A stretch of 57,390 nt of DNA, counting the filler, from Stramenopiles sp. TOSAG23-2 (Eukaryota): NCBI GenBank assembly GCA_900128395.1. It is 4 parts of 4 records of this genome, joined end to end, with 100 filler letters (N's around TTAATTAATTAA, not from the genome) between each part and the next. Parts side by side here need not be neighbours in the genome. Positions count along the whole stretch, not along the records: positions 28,801 to 43,065 come from LT649766.1; 3 more parts are not named here. The stretch is one strand, 5' to 3'. The position numbers were made by a program, and so were the translations under genes. Each line of letters opens with the position of its first letter. Position 1 is the first letter of the stretch. The notes beneath the pieces were generated by a model. That model did no database searches. It saw only the letters and a list, made by a program, of their open reading frames with translations, and was not told the origin of the DNA. Positions 36,902 to 44,618 of this stretch are shown here, in pieces.

Positions 36902-38068
36902 ATGCAATATTGGATGGCGTTGTTTTACTTCTGCACAGGGTGGGTTGCCAACGCTTATCTAAGTGCGCCATACTTTTACCCAGTATTGTCACCGTCGCTA
37001 CGGCGTAATGATCGGCATACACAAGTTAATTGTATTGTACAGAAGACTTCACCAGACAAAATTGCCATACGTAATACTTCGTGGGCTGAATATAAGGTTC
37101 CCATAAACGCCACTGCCATCACAAACGATATCCCAAACGTCTATAATGTAGGTAATTTGACACACCTCACTATGCCCACGCAAAGACCATTGACTACAGA
37201 CAACAATAAGGGCACAAAAAAATGTCCGGCAGGTATTGTTGCATTAACTTACGCAAGTCATCCTGGGAAAGACGATCGCTTTTGTAAGCACGTTGAGTCG
37301 GCTCTCCGTAACAACGTTACTCTTGAAATACTCGGCTGGGGCACACGTTGGGCAGGACTTACACAAAAGTTACAAGGCGCATTAAAAGCAATTGAACGTC
37401 TACCTGCAAATTGCGTGGTCGTCTTCGTAGACGCATACGATGTGCTTTGGACGAAATCGCTTGCTGCAATTTTATCTGAGTTTCGCGCCATGCACAGACC
37501 ATTAGTATTTGCAGCCGAGTGTGGGTGCTGGCCTCATTGGATTGAAGATGCTAAAATGGGTTTTCCAAAGGGCACCATATGTGTAGAGAAATATCCATGG
37601 TCAGATAAGGGATCGCCGTATCGATATCTCAATAGTGGAATGTGGATCGGCGAAGTGGGGTATGCAAAATCGCTATTAAGCCATCTAACGAGAAAAAGCA
37701 AACTTGATGAGAACGATCAAAAGTTGGTAGCAGATGCATACATGAGAGGAGAGTTGAATATTTCTCTAGATACACGTAGCAGAATTTTTCAGTGCATGCA
37801 TAGCACCCGAAGGGAAGAGCCTAGCCCAGGTCTAATTTTCCATGCATGTGATCCGCACAATGACATTGATTTTGTTAATGAGACATGGGTCAACAAACGG
37901 TTTGGTACGAAACCAGCGTTGTTCCACTTTAATGGGGGTGGAAAACGACACCACATAGAAATGTACAATCGCATGGGCTGGGAAACAGGATATGAAACAA
38001 ACACAAAATGGTCATGGGGAGGTGTTACTAAATCAGTGAGATCTATTTGCAAGAAACCAGAACCATAA
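36902..38068 (+). CDS. PLOD-type (procollagen lysyl hydroxylase N-terminal) glycosyltransferase-like protein
   Basis: Signal/anchor peptide, then VVFVDAYDV (DxxD), LVFAAECGCWP, YRYLNSGMWIG, DENDQ, LDTRSRIFQ and FHFNGGGK. Confidence 0.85.
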   Translation: MQYWMALFYFCTGWVANAYLSAPYFYPVLSPSLRRNDRHTQVNCIVQKTSPDKIAIRNTSWAEYKVPINATAITNDIPNVYNVGNLTHLTMPTQRPLTTDNNKGTKKCPAGIVALTYASHPGKDDRFCKHVESALRNNVTLEILGWGTRWAGLTQKLQGALKAIERLPANCVVVFVDAYDVLWTKSLAAILSEFRAMHRPLVFAAECGCWPHWIEDAKMGFPKGTICVEKYPWSDKGSPYRYLNSGMWIGEVGYAKSLLSHLTRKSKLDENDQKLVADAYMRGELNISLDTRSRIFQCMHSTRREEPSPGLIFHACDPHNDIDFVNETWVNKRFGTKPALFHFNGGGKRHHIEMYNRMGWETGYETNTKWSWGGVTKSVRSICKKPEP

Positions 38069-38399: not shown

Positions 38400-38612
38400 T
38401 CACACACTTCTGTATGATATGCCAGGATGCAATTTTTCAGCTATTGATACCATTTTCGGAGGATTTTTTTGCAGAACATCTTTATACTTTACCAAAATGA
38501 CTTCCTCCATCTTTTTCCTCATATCGTTCGGGATTTCTGGCTTATATATCATCGGCTTGACTGTTGTAAGTGGTCCCTTATAAAAACTCCTTTTAATTAT
38601 TTTTTTAGACAC
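38400..38612 (-). CDS. Possible small basic protein
   Basis: 70-codon ORF with protein-like composition, but the start is GTG and no motif is recognisable. Confidence 0.25.
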   Translation of the reverse strand: MSKKIIKRSFYKGPLTTVKPMIYKPEIPNDMRKKMEEVILVKYKDVLQKNPPKMVSIAEKLHPGISYRSV

Positions 38613-39101
38613 TTTGCGCCTGCAGCGTTAATTTCCTCCCACAAATCTTACTACACCATTCAGGGCAGGGGTCCTTGCCGCCTGGCCCGGCTGGCAGGCG
38701 AATGTTGTTAATCATAATTAATTGAACTTTTCCCGTATCCCGCATCCCCTTAATTTACTTAAATTCATCTGTGTCCTATTAATATCGGGCTGGTCATACT
38801 TGTAGACGATTGCTGTCCTGGCTGTCGCCGCGTCCACCAATATTACTAGATAATAAAAAAATTAATAAAGAAGATATTATATATAATACACAGGTATCGA
38901 TATTGAATAAATTGTAAAATTTAAAAACACAATTGTATAGTATTACATATACATCCATATTTATTGATATATATAGATATTTACAATTGTATATATTTAT
39001 ACATACATATATATATATATATTTACAAAGAAATTAACATTTATTTATAGATATACGTGTAGACAATAATAATATATATATTTATTTTTTCGTAATTAAA
39101 C

Positions 39102-42100
39102 ATGGTATCTACTCGTTCGACACCAGCGAGGAAAAGAACCAAAACACCAGCAAAAAAAAGAACAAAAACTCCTGCGAAAAAGAAGACGGCAAAAAAAACT
39201 CCAGTGAAAAAGAAAAAGGCGACGCCTGCAAAGAAGAAGCAATCGAAGTCTCCGGCACCAAAGAAAAAGGCAGCTCTGGTAAAGAAGAAAAAGGCAACGC
39301 CAGCAAAGAAAACGAAATCGACAAGAGCAAAAACACCAGTACGTGCTAAAGCTACACAAAAAAAAAGTAATAAATTTAAAAACAAATCAAATATTAATAA
39401 AAAATCTGATGAGGAATTATTTGATGCGTGGAATTATACTGTAGATGATAATTTGAAATATTATCAAGTCAATATGAGCAAAGGTTTGTCAACAGCAGAG
39501 GCAGCAAAGCGATTGGAGAGATTTGGGAAAAACGAATTGGACAAAGAAGAAGGAGCAACTTTGTGGGAACTTTTCTTAGAACAATTTGATGACCCGTTGG
39601 TTCAAATTTTACTAGGTGCTGCAGTCATATCAACTGCTACTGCAATTTTGGAAAAAGAGGATTGGAGGGAACATACCTTTGGTATTGGTGATTTTGTGGA
39701 GCCAATTGTTATCATGACCATATTGATCTTAAATGCTATAGTTGGCGTATGGCAAGAACACAATGCAGAGAATGCGTTGGAGGCATTGAAAGAATTGACA
39801 CCTAGCACTGCAAGAGTTTTGCGTGATGGTTCTTTGGATAATGAATTTCTAGCAAATGGCTTAGTTCCTGGGGATATTGTTGAAGTGAAAGTTGGTGATA
39901 TGGTACCAGCAGATTGCCGCGCGTTGCAATTAAAAACAACGACTGTTGGGATTGAACAGATGTCATTGACTGGGGAAAGTGCAACAGTGCGCAAAGAAAC
40001 AAATTTCATCAACGCATCTAATCCTGAAATCCAATTGAAAACAAATATGGTATTTGCTGGAACTGTATGTTCAAATGGCCATATGATTGGAGTTGTGCAA
40101 AGTACAGGGATGCGAACCGAAATTGGTAAAGTTCAAGCAGCTGTGCAAGGTGCTGCGAAGGAAAATGAAGATGAAAAAACACCTCTTGGTGAAAAATTAG
40201 ATGATTTTAGCAATCAATTGATGTATTTAATCGGCTTAGTTTGTGCATTGGTATGGCTATTAAAATACAATGAATGGTTGTATGTAGATGGGAAATTCGC
40301 ATTCAATTATAAATCATGTTTGGAAAATTTTCAAGTGGCAGTTGCACTTGCTGTTGCTGCCATTCCGGAAGGTTTGCCAGCAGTTATCACTACATGTTTA
40401 GCGTTGGGTACAAGGCAGATGGCAAAGCGAAATGCTATTGTAAGAAAACTGCCAAGTGTGGAGACGTTGGGCTGTACTACCGTGATTTGCAGTGATAAAA
40501 CTGGAACATTGACGACAAATATGATGTCCGTGCGAAAAGTGATTACCATGTTTTCTAAGACCCAAGTTAAGGAATACAGTGTTGGTGGCAGTACATATGA
40601 TCCAACGGATGGAGAAATATCCCCAGCCTACGATGGTGAGGATGCTGCATTAAACGCATGCGCTCAAATTAGTGCTTTGTGTAATGGTGCAAAATTGGTT
40701 TATAAAGATGGGCAATTTGGAAGGGAAGGTCAACCGACTGAGGCAGCGTTATCAGTGCTTGCAGAAAAAATTGGACGCGGCGATGTAGGTTTAGCTAGCA
40801 AAGAATCGCCCCAATCCGTTTGCGATGCCTATCATGAACAGTGTCCAACAATCGCAACTTTAGAATTTAGCCGTAAGCGCAAATCAATGGGTGTTATCTG
40901 CAAGGAAGGTCCAGAAAACACGGTGTTTGTAAAGGGGGCGCCAGAAAGTGTGCTCGCGCGTTGTCGTCATTGTTTGTTAGAAGATGGCACCCAAGTTCGT
41001 TTAACAACGGGTATGCTCAACAAAATAAAAAGGGAAGTGTCGAAAATGTCATCCGACGCATTGCGTTGCATTGCTTTGGCATATCGTCAAGACTTGGGTT
41101 CTCCGTTGAATGATTATGACGGATCAGAAAGTCATCCTGGGCATGCTGTTTTGGCTGAGCCGGGTGCAGAAGAAGAGATTGAAAGTGATTTAGTATTTGC
41201 TGGAGTTGCTGCTATGCGAGATCCACCACGCGCAGCAGTCAAACAATCCATTGAAGACTGTGTTGCTGCGGGAATTCGTGTTATTGTTATTACTGGTGAT
41301 AATCAAAAAACTGCAGAGGCAATTTGTCGGCAAATCGGATTGTTTGACGAGAACGAAAATTTAAGTAAACTGTCTTTTGTTGGAAGAGAATTTGATGCTT
41401 TAAGTGAACGCAAACAAATTCAATTGTTGACAGACGCGAAAAACATGGAGAAAGGCATGGTTTTCTCACGCGCCGAGCCTGCTTTTAAACAGAATATTGT
41501 TCGCTTGTTAAAAGAGCAATTAAATGAAATTGCAGCTATGACAGGAGATGGTGTAAACGATGCACCTGCATTAAAATTAGCAAATATTGGTATTGCGATG
41601 GGAATTGCCGGTACAGAAGTTGCAAAGGAAGCTTCTGATATGGTACTTGCTGATGATAACTTTTCTACTATTGTTGCTGCTGTTGAGGAAGGCCGTGCCA
41701 TTTATAATAACATGAAAGCATTTATACGTTACATGATCTCATCGAATATTGGTGAGGTTGTATCCATTTTTTTCACATCATTGCTAGGTATGCCGGCTGG
41801 TTTGCTATCTGTGCAACTTTTATGGGTCAATTTGGTAACTGATGGTCCACCAGCAACTGCGCTTGGCTTCAATCCAGCTGATAAAGACATCATGACCAAA
41901 CCACCTCGTTCCAAAGATGATGTGCTTATTAATAATTGGACAATGATACGTTATGTTATTGTTGGGTTATATGTTGGTGCTGCTACTGTTGGAATTTACG
42001 GCGTGTATTTCACTGGCAATGAATTTATGGGAATAAATTATTCAGCTGATAATCATAACACCATTTCCTGGGAACAATTGACGCATTATAAATCATGTGA

Positions 42101-42512
42101 CCAAAATACAGATATGTTTCAAGGCATAGATTGTGACATGTTGTTGAATGAAAGAAGTTTTGAGAGGACAAAAGCTTCTACCTTGTCATTAACCGTATTG
42201 GTGACAATTGAGATGCTCAACTGCTTAAATGCGCTTTCTGAGGACAATAGTTTGTTGGTCATGCCACCATGGATTAATCCATATTTATTAGCAGCCATGT
42301 TCATGTCATTTGCATTACATTTCATGATATTATATTATGAAAGTTTTCAAAATATCTTTGCGATACAATGGTTAAGTTGGGATGAATGGATGTTGGTATT
42401 ATTATTTTCTATGCCTGTCATTTTGATTGACGAAGTTTTGAAATTATTTGGGCGTCATTTCAATCATCAAGCACTACTAAAAAGAGAAGCGGAACGTAAA
42501 AAGCATATGTAG
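39102..42512 (+). CDS. ATP2A: SERCA-type P2A Ca2+-ATPase with histone-H1-like N-terminal extension
   Basis: LTGES, AVAAIPEGLP, phosphorylation site CSDKTGT, KGAPE, TGDGVNDAP, ISSNIGE, WVNLVTDG and IEMLN. First ~95 aa are K/A/T/P-rich. Confidence 0.95.
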   Translation: MVSTRSTPARKRTKTPAKKRTKTPAKKKTAKKTPVKKKKATPAKKKQSKSPAPKKKAALVKKKKATPAKKTKSTRAKTPVRAKATQKKSNKFKNKSNINKKSDEELFDAWNYTVDDNLKYYQVNMSKGLSTAEAAKRLERFGKNELDKEEGATLWELFLEQFDDPLVQILLGAAVISTATAILEKEDWREHTFGIGDFVEPIVIMTILILNAIVGVWQEHNAENALEALKELTPSTARVLRDGSLDNEFLANGLVPGDIVEVKVGDMVPADCRALQLKTTTVGIEQMSLTGESATVRKETNFINASNPEIQLKTNMVFAGTVCSNGHMIGVVQSTGMRTEIGKVQAAVQGAAKENEDEKTPLGEKLDDFSNQLMYLIGLVCALVWLLKYNEWLYVDGKFAFNYKSCLENFQVAVALAVAAIPEGLPAVITTCLALGTRQMAKRNAIVRKLPSVETLGCTTVICSDKTGTLTTNMMSVRKVITMFSKTQVKEYSVGGSTYDPTDGEISPAYDGEDAALNACAQISALCNGAKLVYKDGQFGREGQPTEAALSVLAEKIGRGDVGLASKESPQSVCDAYHEQCPTIATLEFSRKRKSMGVICKEGPENTVFVKGAPESVLARCRHCLLEDGTQVRLTTGMLNKIKREVSKMSSDALRCIALAYRQDLGSPLNDYDGSESHPGHAVLAEPGAEEEIESDLVFAGVAAMRDPPRAAVKQSIEDCVAAGIRVIVITGDNQKTAEAICRQIGLFDENENLSKLSFVGREFDALSERKQIQLLTDAKNMEKGMVFSRAEPAFKQNIVRLLKEQLNEIAAMTGDGVNDAPALKLANIGIAMGIAGTEVAKEASDMVLADDNFSTIVAAVEEGRAIYNNMKAFIRYMISSNIGEVVSIFFTSLLGMPAGLLSVQLLWVNLVTDGPPATALGFNPADKDIMTKPPRSKDDVLINNWTMIRYVIVGLYVGAATVGIYGVYFTGNEFMGINYSADNHNTISWEQLTHYKSCDQNTDMFQGIDCDMLLNERSFERTKASTLSLTVLVTIEMLNCLNALSEDNSLLVMPPWINPYLLAAMFMSFALHFMILYYESFQNIFAIQWLSWDEWMLVLLFSMPVILIDEVLKLFGRHFNHQALLKREAERKKHM

Positions 42513-43065: not shown

Positions 43066-43165
43066 NNNNNNNNNNNNNNNNNNNNNNNNNNNNNNNNNNN
43101 NNNNNNNNNTTAATTAATTAANNNNNNNNNNNNNNNNNNNNNNNNNNNNNNNNNNNNNNNNNNNN
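43066..43165. other. Artificial contig linker
   Basis: 44 N + TTAATTAATTAA + 44 N. Confidence 0.97.
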
Positions 43166-44618
43166 AAATGAAATTTGCACCACATACTTTAAATTCACGC
43201 GATGTTAAACATTCAATAGTACCAGCAAATGCCATTTCTAAATGTCCTCTGTCGCATTCCGGTGCAGTATCTGGATGGCGTTTAAATACACGTTGGAAAC
43301 TTTCTTTAAATACACTTTGTCCGAAACTATCTGCTAATACGGATAAACCTCCCGTCTTCTCCACACAACGTTTCATTTCCAATAAACCAACTTGATCTAA
43401 GGAACATGCAAAGATATCAACTACATGAGAATTACGAACGCAACGATCTGCAAGGCCTTCATAATGTTGACATGCATCTTTGAACATTGGTGCTAATCCT
43501 TTCAATAAATCATTATGCGATCGCATTGTTTTACTCAATTCTTTTGAAACAATCGCTCCAGGACCATGTGTACATGGACCACCAACAAAGGTCATGATTC
43601 GTGCACCTATTTTTTTTGTTTTATAAAATTATTATATATGTTAGAAAATTATTATATATATATATATATATATACGGTAATGAAACAATAATTTTATATG
43701 TGTGGAGGTCGGATGAACGAAATCTCATTTTTGGGAGGATTTATGATATATATATATATATATATACTTACCACTATTAGGTACAGCTGTTTCCAATAAT
43801 CCAACTGCAACAGCTAATGCAGAACCAGTTGCTCTTGAAGGTCTTAAACCTTCACCTACATGCCATGGATCACGTGCTAAATCATCTAATACAGATTCCA
43901 ATGAAAAACCACATTCCGATACAGGCACTAAAAATCGTCCTATTGCTTGATCATTACCTGTACTTGGTTGTTGACCTGCCATGCCACCTGGTCTAATACC
44001 TAGCAACGCACTAACTTTATTAGCATCTAATGCTTTCTCTCCACGGAATACAAATGATTTTGGACATTCCGTATAACCTAACTCATGCAATTGCACATTT
44101 GTTCCAAACGTCACTAAACCGACCAATGCTTCATCTGGTAATAAATTTAAACATTGTTGTAGTGAATCTTTCAACTCTTCCAATTGATCTTCACTTAAAC
44201 AAGTATCTACAACAAATAAGAAAACAGGTGGACCTGCACGTCGGTTTGGCAACGCATATTCTAAAGTTGTGTATTGCGGTATTAACTCTGCTGGCAAATT
44301 CGTTTCACTAAGTAATTCTGCGTAATGTGGTGGGAAATGATTTCTTGTCAAGCAAAATGGACAAGTCCATAACTTTGAATGAAAATCTACTTGACACCAT
44401 GGATTTAATATTGCCCCACAGTTTGGATTTTTACAACGTATTGGATCATAATCTACTGCAGCAATCGAATGTTGTGGTGCGCGATTCTTTAAAGGCGTTA
44501 AAATACATCCTACTGGAACTACAATACGCGTCGCTTCGATACGTGATGATGGCCACATATTCCAACTAAATCGTACACCATCTCGTTCCTCCGCTGCCAT
44601 AAAATCCCATCCTGACAT
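43166..44618 (-). CDS. SEC23: COPII coat protein Sec23 (2 exons visible, 3'-truncated)
   Basis: EERDGVRFSWNMWPSSR, zinc finger and FLFVVDTC. Exon 44618-43772, intron GTAAGT...ATAG (43771-43607), exon from 43606 restoring GARIMTFVGGPCT. Confidence 0.96.

Follow-up and report, generated by a model that had tools for sequence, protein, structure and literature searches.

An H1-tail-like N-terminal extension on a SERCA-type Ca2+ pump of Stramenopiles sp. TOSAG23-2

Does the nucleus control its own Ca2+ apart from that of the cytosol, and if so, how? To our knowledge, MCA8 of the legumes is the only well-studied nuclear-envelope SERCA, and we know of no targeting device that places it there. The locus described here raises this long-standing question in an unusual form. 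It lies in a 57,390-nucleotide stretch of DNA (hereafter the window), four parts of the genome of the uncultured marine protist Stramenopiles sp. TOSAG23-2 (assembly GCA_900128395.1) joined by filler, in the part that comes from record LT649766.1. There, a single intron-less open reading frame (ORF) of 1136 amino acids (aa), beginning MVSTRS, runs from 39102 to 42512 on the + strand. Its aa 1–105 form a tail rich in K, A, T and P, and its aa ~110–1136 form a Ca2+-ATPase of the P2A (SERCA/ECA) type. A first-pass annotation of this DNA had pointed out the tail, likened it to that of histone H1 and placed it in frame with the pump, as indeed it is. Here, we examine whether this tail is a genuine part of the protein, how it has evolved and what it might hold the pump to. 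We find good support for a tail that is expressed and maintained by purifying selection, and we suggest, tentatively, that it serves as an electrostatic anchor.

The reading frame, its transcript and the pump

The locus is laid out as follows.

39035–39101, + strand: minimum 5' untranslated region (UTR), AT-rich and without an ATG; the RNA contig of run X1 starts at 39035
39102–39416, + strand: H1-tail-like N-terminal extension, aa 1–105, K/A/T/P-rich, isoelectric point (pI) 11.9, predicted disordered, no Pfam match
39417–42512, + strand: core of the P2A (SERCA/ECA-type) Ca2+-ATPase, aa 106–1136 plus the stop codon, recognized by Pfam, alignment and motifs

That the tail is translated from the ATG at 39102 and expressed is well supported, since it forms a single exon with the pump, a stop codon lies upstream, no alternative ATG occurs before codon 125 and a continuous RNA contig crosses it. 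The in-frame stop is a TAA two codons before the ATG. No ATG in any register is present on the + strand across 38703–39101, which makes the ATG at 39102 (context AAACATGG) the first AUG in ~400 nt. After codon 1 the next in-frame ATG is codon 125, within the Pfam domain Cation_ATPase_N (aa 110–177) and 15 residues past the position aligned with the start of SERCA1a. The place where a SERCA usually starts reads LFDAWNYTV and has no Met (SERCA1a residues 5–9 align to residues 110–113), so on this point too the first-pass annotation was right. The GC content is coding-like in the tail (0.37–0.43) as against 0.13–0.24 immediately upstream, and at third codon positions the values are 0.30 (tail) and 0.32 (pump).

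The public sequencing runs listed for this locus number 23, of which 20 contain 39050–40300 or part of it; 11 of these 20, from 9 studies, are recorded as RNA, and contigs from four RNA runs of four studies were compared with the window. Being assembled contigs, they show continuity and give neither the transcript start nor the expression level. The contig of run X1 is unbroken across 39035–40200, from the 5' UTR through the tail and into the pump, with no joint or indel, and the contigs of X12 (39277–40108) and X13 (39351–40129) are equally free of joints and indels. A tail that is spliced out, or that belongs to a separate transcript, is thereby ruled out, and the RNA bears out the junction of tail and pump as it was first annotated. 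Positions 38614–39012 have no RNA cover in the four runs, a contig gap that by itself proves nothing. Also rejected was a mitochondrial or plastid presequence or a secretory signal, in view of the blocks of Lys, the lack of a hydrophobic core and the cytosolic N-terminus of SERCA pumps.

By its domains and motifs the pump is a complete P2A Ca2+-ATPase of the type found in the endoplasmic reticulum (ER), predicted to transport Ca2+ into the ER lumen; this conclusion follows from five Pfam domains, a best score to SERCA1a and a full set of catalytic and Ca2+-site motifs. All five families (Cation_ATPase_N, E1-E2_ATPase, Cation_ATPase, Hydrolase and Cation_ATPase_C) score above their curated cut-offs, and no Pfam family falls on aa 1–109. 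The catalytic motifs TGES, DKTGT(LT) and TGDGVNDAPALK are all present and are invariant columns in a 39-sequence alignment, and the Ca2+-site segments IPEGLP (M4), SSNIGEV (M5), NLVTDG (M6) and IEMLN (M8) align to their SERCA1a counterparts (TGES is at residue 290, PEGL at 422, DKTGT at 465, TGDGVND at 814, SSNIGEV at 880, NLVTDG at 910 and IEMLN at 1036). From the SERCA1a structures, we take the Glu of PEGL in M4, the Asn and Glu of M5, the Asn, Thr and Asp of M6 and the Glu of M8 to be the residues of the Ca2+ sites. Among proteins of solved structure the best relatives are SERCA1a chains (905 bits, as against 445 for SPCA1 and ~360 (362) for the Na,K-/H,K-ATPase group), and identity to the plant ER-type pumps is 53–56%. 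Homology to the N-terminus of SERCA1a further predicts that the tail faces the cytosol, or the nucleoplasm in the case of a pump in the inner nuclear membrane, which supports the orientation originally proposed.

The alignment to SERCA1a/SERCA2 and to ECA1-4/MCA8 thus runs end to end from SERCA1a residue 5–9 and includes all the catalytic and Ca2+-site motifs, but these pumps lack a long basic N-terminal tail. In the open-access literature, we found no description of a SERCA or any other P-type ATPase with an H1-like or lysine-rich tail.

Composition and evolution of the tail

The tail has 37 K, 14 T, 14 A, 9 P, 8 S and 6 R among its 105 residues, a mass of 11.7 kDa and a pI of 11.86 (that of the pump is 4.94). 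Its net charge is +42 over residues 1–100 and that of the remainder of the protein is -37. The consensus site of the cyclin-dependent kinases (CDKs) is [ST]Px[KR], and motifs of the SPKK type bind AT-rich DNA. This full consensus occurs at seven sites in the tail, all of the form TPx[KR] (residues 7, 15, 23, 33, 41, 66 and 78), and SPAPK at residue 50 adds a minimal S-P site; S or T precedes 8 of the 9 prolines. When the tail's own residues are shuffled, the mean number of TPx[KR] motifs is 0.50 and none of 100,000 shuffles reaches seven, so that the seven motifs noticed at first are real in number, far above chance for this composition, and belong to a tail of 105 aa. The features within the tail are listed here.

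39102–39185, + strand: first 28 codons (MVSTRSTPARKRTKTPAKKRTKTPAKKK), where the tail is under the strongest constraint
39120–39131, + strand: CDK-consensus site 1, TPAR, aa 7–10
39144–39155, + strand: CDK-consensus site 2, TPAK, aa 15–18
39168–39179, + strand: CDK-consensus site 3, TPAK, aa 23–26
39198–39209, + strand: CDK-consensus site 4, TPVK, aa 33–36
39222–39233, + strand: CDK-consensus site 5, TPAK, aa 41–44
39249–39263, + strand: SPAPK, minimal S-P site, aa 50–54, matching the repeated KSPAPKKK unit of a sister species
39297–39308, + strand: CDK-consensus site 6, TPAK, aa 66–69
39333–39344, + strand: CDK-consensus site 7, TPVR, aa 78–81
39120–39186, + strand: in-frame tandem repeat of 24 nt (8 codons), 2.8 copies
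39261–39310, + strand: in-frame tandem repeat of 24 nt (8 codons), 2.1 copies
39358, + strand: tri-allelic site, at which environmental alleles encode Q, R or L in codon 86; no other position of the protein varies as much

The tail is predicted to be intrinsically disordered: AlphaFold2, given the 39-sequence alignment, assigns aa 1–103 a confidence (pLDDT) of ~25 and no secondary structure, while the pump folds with a mean pLDDT of 71. In its K/A/T(S)/P composition, its disorder, its [ST]Px[KR] repeats, its length (~100 residues) and its charge (~+40), the tail resembles the C-terminal domain of H1 and the SPKK-rich tails of sperm H1 and H2B, and the dominance of K, A, T and P confirms the H1-like composition claimed for it. 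H1-type tails bind DNA and are regulated by CDKs. In contrast to the linker histone, however, this tail is joined to a 10-helix membrane pump, and the Pfam family Linker_histone (the winged-helix globular domain) is absent at E ≤ 0.01; because it lacks that domain, the tail reads as H1-tail-like in kind only, and not as an H1.

The protein has close relatives on record: an identical one (P0121) and six further full-length alleles that differ at 1–4 residues. Of the five positions at which these alleles vary, 29 and 86 belong to the tail and the other three to the pump. An extension at the same place occurs in three further species clusters.

Species cluster B (P0220, locus L001): pump identity 94%, tail identity 79%; tail of 112 aa, charge +42, S or T before 9 of 9 prolines
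Species cluster C (P0002/P0137/P0139): pump identity 78%, tail identity 53%; tails of 106–151 aa, charge +38 to +59, also starting MVSTR
Species cluster D (P0003): pump identity 74%, tail identity 53% (55 aligned positions); tail of 57 aa, charge +14, starting MPPRR

Alignment shows the tails of three or more sister species clusters to be homologous. The own tail scores 173 against the species C tail, as compared with 100 +/- 11 for shuffled tails, none of 300 shuffles reaching 173. The [ST]P sites are retained at 7 of 8 positions in species B and at 5 of 8 in species C, often as a T/S exchange, and the species C alleles (1140, 1170 and 1185 aa) differ from one another in whole 15-aa units.

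Selection was assessed by a Nei-Gojobori count of synonymous (dS) and nonsynonymous (dN) divergence, on a protein-guided codon alignment of the coding sequence with that of species B (L001). The pump has a dN of 0.037 and a dS of 1.32, hence an omega of 0.028. Over the 100 aligned codons of the tail dN is 0.142 and the synonymous sites are saturated (52 differences over 68 sites), which puts omega at ~0.1 or less, provided that dS in the tail is at least that of the pump. The first 28 codons differ by 15 synonymous changes and 0 nonsynonymous ones; they align without gaps, and it is beyond them that the alignment of low-complexity codons becomes uncertain. These two results, the low dN relative to dS and the purely synonymous change in the first 28 codons, give good support to a tail that is protein-coding and under purifying selection. 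As judged from the species compared, selection keeps the first 28 residues together with the length, the charge and the [ST]P sites; elsewhere the exact sequence drifts and the repeats expand and contract. The tail is a clean case of a disordered segment in which charge, length and motif are conserved rather than exact sequence, with its first 28 residues frozen at the protein level while their synonymous sites are saturated.

How widely is such a tail distributed? In a FastTree phylogeny of 37 sequences the grouping (own,(C,D)) has a support of 1.0. The pumps of its sister group, (P0006,(P0007,P0008)), begin with short basic stretches; the group after that, which includes the labyrinthulomycete Mucochytrium quahogii, is tail-less, and the oomycetes follow. 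Among 118 full-length top matches, a survey without cluster B, whose representative is truncated, the extension before the conserved Trp has a median of 26 aa and attains a charge of at least +8 only in the own cluster, in C (P0002) and in D (P0003). A search with residues 1–125 against proteins of 624–1988 aa (3656 candidates) recovered only the own cluster at E ≤ 0.001, a search made insensitive to low-complexity tails by the composition correction of HMMER. The tail alone had no match at E ≤ 10 among 635 candidates in free-standing proteins of 57–184 aa; with no such H1-like match, an origin by fusion with a free-standing H1-like gene is without support. In a protein atlas the best score to the tail was 0.78, under the useful range, and a cluster scoring 0.75, of which 20% of the members carry the bacterial H1-like family HC2, reflects composition only.

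A metagenome scan with the N-terminal 333 aa of the protein found no match; with P0137 it found 78 loci, 50 of them with an N-domain anchor. Apparent extensions of 206–408 aa in nine loci (L065, L011/13/14/62 and L025/27/28/29) were rejected as tails because internal starts there match known starts (MDAPRVYPA, MARDGTRR, MPPRKSS); they are open upstream frames of GC-rich genomes. In the species B contig L016 (130–300) a garbled poly-A/poly-C insertion breaks the frame of the tail. This is probably a homopolymer assembly error, as L001, a genomic contig from that species, is intact.

As a separate observation, in many related marine-protist pumps of the SERCA type the start reads MPP[RK] or MAPR, and next comes a short basic patch containing TP or SP (P0003, P0008, P0013, P0019; L020, L023, L040, L043-L048, L054, L056, L058, L060, L063). 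Pumps of green picoalgae of the Bathycoccus type are among them. Such starts, including those of P0003 (MPPR), of P0008 (MAPR) and of the Mamiellales-type pumps (MPPK or MPPR), fit XP[KR], given as the canonical N-alpha-methylation motif in PMC10293735, which also reports that this modification strengthens the binding of RCC1 and CENP-B to DNA or chromatin. The protein studied here starts M-V-S-T-R, and its residues 2–4 do not fit this motif of the NTMT/NRMT substrates.

What the tail may hold the pump to

What could a tail of this kind do for a Ca2+ pump? The answer that we put first, while holding it tentatively, is that it acts as a phosphorylation-switchable electrostatic anchor, most likely to DNA or chromatin at the nuclear envelope. 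A disordered tail with a charge of ~+40 would bind an accessible polyanion and so fix a share of the pumps to a polyanionic surface, the likeliest being, on the nuclear side of the envelope, DNA or chromatin. Capture could take place at mitotic exit, as the ER membrane comes into contact with chromatin, or by importin-assisted passage through the pores of a tail that resembles a nuclear localization signal (NLS); the consequence would be a greater uptake of Ca2+ into the perinuclear store. Proline-directed (CDK-type) phosphorylation at up to eight sites would lower the net charge and free the tail in mitosis, which is the behaviour described for LBR, LAP2beta and H1.

Chromatin is the leading candidate because of the rules published for proteins of the nuclear envelope (PMC2063857). 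As set out in that study, a basic cytosolic domain of >100 aa is found in 46% of candidate nuclear-envelope membrane proteins versus 4% of those of the ER/Golgi, such domains bind DNA directly, and mitotic phosphorylation modulates the affinity of membrane for chromatin. With 105 aa and a pI of 11.86, the tail has the length and pI that define such a domain (a basic extralumenal domain, pI > 8.5, of >100 aa; PMC2063857). The basic domains of LBR, LAP2beta and MAN1, which the same study describes as binding DNA or chromatin under the control of mitotic phosphorylation, offer a close parallel: these too are membrane proteins (multi-pass or single-pass, LBR being also an enzyme) whose extralumenal domain is long and basic. 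They show, however, no kinship of sequence or domain with the tail, and their basic domains have a pI of ~9 and contain folded modules, whereas this one has a pI of 11.9 and is predicted to be disordered throughout. They are proteins of the nuclear envelope, for which the pump is a candidate. A SERCA-type pump can reside on that membrane, as MCA8 of Medicago does according to PMC4754458.

A fuller version of this proposal places the pump in the inner nuclear membrane: a lineage of marine heterotrophic stramenopiles would have made its ER pump chromatin-bound and cell-cycle-gated, the pump would clear nucleoplasmic Ca2+, and CDK acting at the seven TPxK sites would free it at mitosis. We regard this version as doubtful. 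If true, it would provide a natural and self-contained way of handling nuclear Ca2+ apart from cytosolic Ca2+. The extralumenal mass of the pump, estimated from the alignment to SERCA1a and from the helix boundaries of SERCA1a, is ~78 kDa. The limits given for yeast, in PMC4695851, are ~90 kDa for passive entry and 136 kDa with an NLS-linker, and the pump lies below both. In that system, extralumenal domains as large as 136 kDa pass the pores by means of an NLS and a disordered linker of the Heh1/Heh2/Pom121 type. The tail shares with these proteins NLS-like basic clusters and a disordered stretch on the extralumenal side, but its basic clusters coincide with what would be the linker, and ~55 folded residues separate it from the first membrane helix.

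Several observations weigh against anchoring to chromatin. The tail has changed faster than the pump (79% versus 94% identity to species B), and that of species D has only two [ST]P sites in 57 aa and a charge of +14, so that a long tail seems dispensable within the clade. The cyclin-docking motif RxL ([RK]xL) is absent from aa 1–125, although it is not obligatory in CDK substrates. Any polycation of +40 binds DNA in vitro, and composition alone therefore cannot favour chromatin over microtubules, RNA or acidic lipids. Finally, the ~78 kDa of the pump exceeds the limit of ~60 kD for entry into the inner membrane that PMC4460150 gives for interphase human cells.

The alternatives are then to be weighed by what else the tail could bind, or whether it need bind anything. 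The best-documented rival, by analogy with CLIMP-63, is a tether between ER and microtubules, in which the basic tail would lie on acidic tubulin and place the pump-bearing ER on microtubules, on the flagellar root or on the spindle until CDK frees it in mitosis. A basic, TPxK-rich composition is common to many CDK-regulated microtubule binders. CLIMP-63 likewise has a basic cytosolic N-terminus on an ER membrane protein, of which, according to bioRxiv 10.1101/2025.09.01.673496, the N-terminal 28 residues suffice for microtubule binding and CDK1 acting at S17 frees the ER in mitosis; in the protein studied here the most constrained residues are also the first 28. But the two are not homologous, and the tail, with 105 residues and 7–8 sites instead of 28 residues and one key site, is much longer and more highly charged than that sufficient segment; it bears no similarity to known microtubule-binding motifs, nor has it any Pfam match. 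We consider a microtubule tether unlikely.

The tail could also be a largely passive low-complexity expansion, in which slippage of repeats, in a genome rich in AT, lengthened a short basic N-terminal signal, and function is confined to the extreme N-terminus; the ancestral signal might have been a di-arginine ER-retention signal, an NLS or the XP[KR] methylation motif (compare the relatives that start MPPRR, MARR or MAPR). The two in-frame 24-nt repeats, the variable number of units within species C, the faster evolution of the tail, the much shorter tail of species D, the relatives with short basic starts and a genome of 32% GC, which favours AAA and so Lys, all fit such a history. A dN of 0.14 with a dS of at least 1.3 (omega ~0.1) is nevertheless far from neutral, length (106–112 aa) and charge (+38 to +42) are kept in three species clusters, and the [ST]P sites survive through T/S swaps. 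Moreover, AAG makes up a larger share of the Lys codons in the tail (0.38) than in the pump (0.18), and in the window (57 kb, six frames, ORFs of at least 80 aa) no other stretch has at least three [ST]Px[KR] per 60 aa or at least 40% K+R. Passive expansion is on this showing quite unlikely.

As an anchor to acidic lipids, the polybasic tail would bind phosphatidylserine or phosphoinositides, in the plasma membrane or in some other organelle; it would keep the pump at contact sites of the ER, and phosphorylation would be the electrostatic switch. A disordered cytosolic segment carrying +42 would suit this role. STIM1 is an example of an ER protein whose polybasic tail binds lipids of the plasma membrane, and in Ste5 CDK sites beside a basic membrane-binding patch act as a switch. 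Known lipid-binding polybasic patches are, however, short (~10–30 residues), and as a rule they contain hydrophobic or aromatic side chains, whereas among the 105 residues of the tail F, L and I occur just once each and V four times, and the spacing by A, P and T is H1-like instead; we think such an anchor less likely still.

In the alpha subunits of the Na,K- and H,K-ATPases (P2C) the N-terminal regulatory segment is lysine-rich, with ~30 residues of mixed K/E charge, and in the plant ACA pumps the N-terminus is autoinhibitory. An intramolecular regulator, in which the cationic tail would fold onto the acidic headpiece or the membrane surface and tune the E1/E2 cycle until phosphorylation relieves it, might be expected from that flexible lysine-rich N-terminus on another P2-type ATPase, from HMMER alignments to the Na,K-/H,K-ATPase alpha subunits that reach residues 78–87, the K-rich end of the tail, and from the -37 net charge and pI of 4.9 of the remainder of the protein, but it is just as improbable as the lipid anchor, given that those subunits lack a TPxK array, that AlphaFold docks nothing (pLDDT ~25 and no secondary structure over aa 1–103), that no amphipathic helix of the calmodulin-binding type is predicted and that such a regulator has no need of 105 residues of repeat sequence varying in copy number. 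Our search of the open-access literature found no paper on the lysine-rich N-terminal tail of the Na,K-ATPase.

Whether it binds chromatin, as we tentatively prefer, or another surface, the tail is a built-in, selected, H1-like polycation with CDK sites, and so a simple and portable object with which the placement of a pump can be tested. Even as an anchor to microtubules or lipids, it would represent a new mode of positioning a SERCA.

Neighbouring sequence

Some observations concern the sequence on either side of the pump gene. Upstream, across 38507–38607, RNA contigs of runs X2 and X13 (two studies) both stop at 38607 and go on with an identical 30-letter continuation that is not found in the window at up to 3 mismatches. 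At this break a neighbouring gene may have an exon junction, the partner exon being absent from the assembly or differing there. A 75-aa open frame without a Pfam match covers 38400–38627 on the - strand. The upstream neighbour, at 36902–38068 (+), encodes a 388-aa protein with a glycosyltransferase domain of the PLOD type (GT_PLOD, E 1.8e-25). Downstream, at 43110–44618 (-), lies the gene of a Sec23-type COPII subunit, recognized by its zinc finger and trunk domains; it is broken into two or more open frames and interrupted by runs of N at 43066–43109 and 43122–43165.

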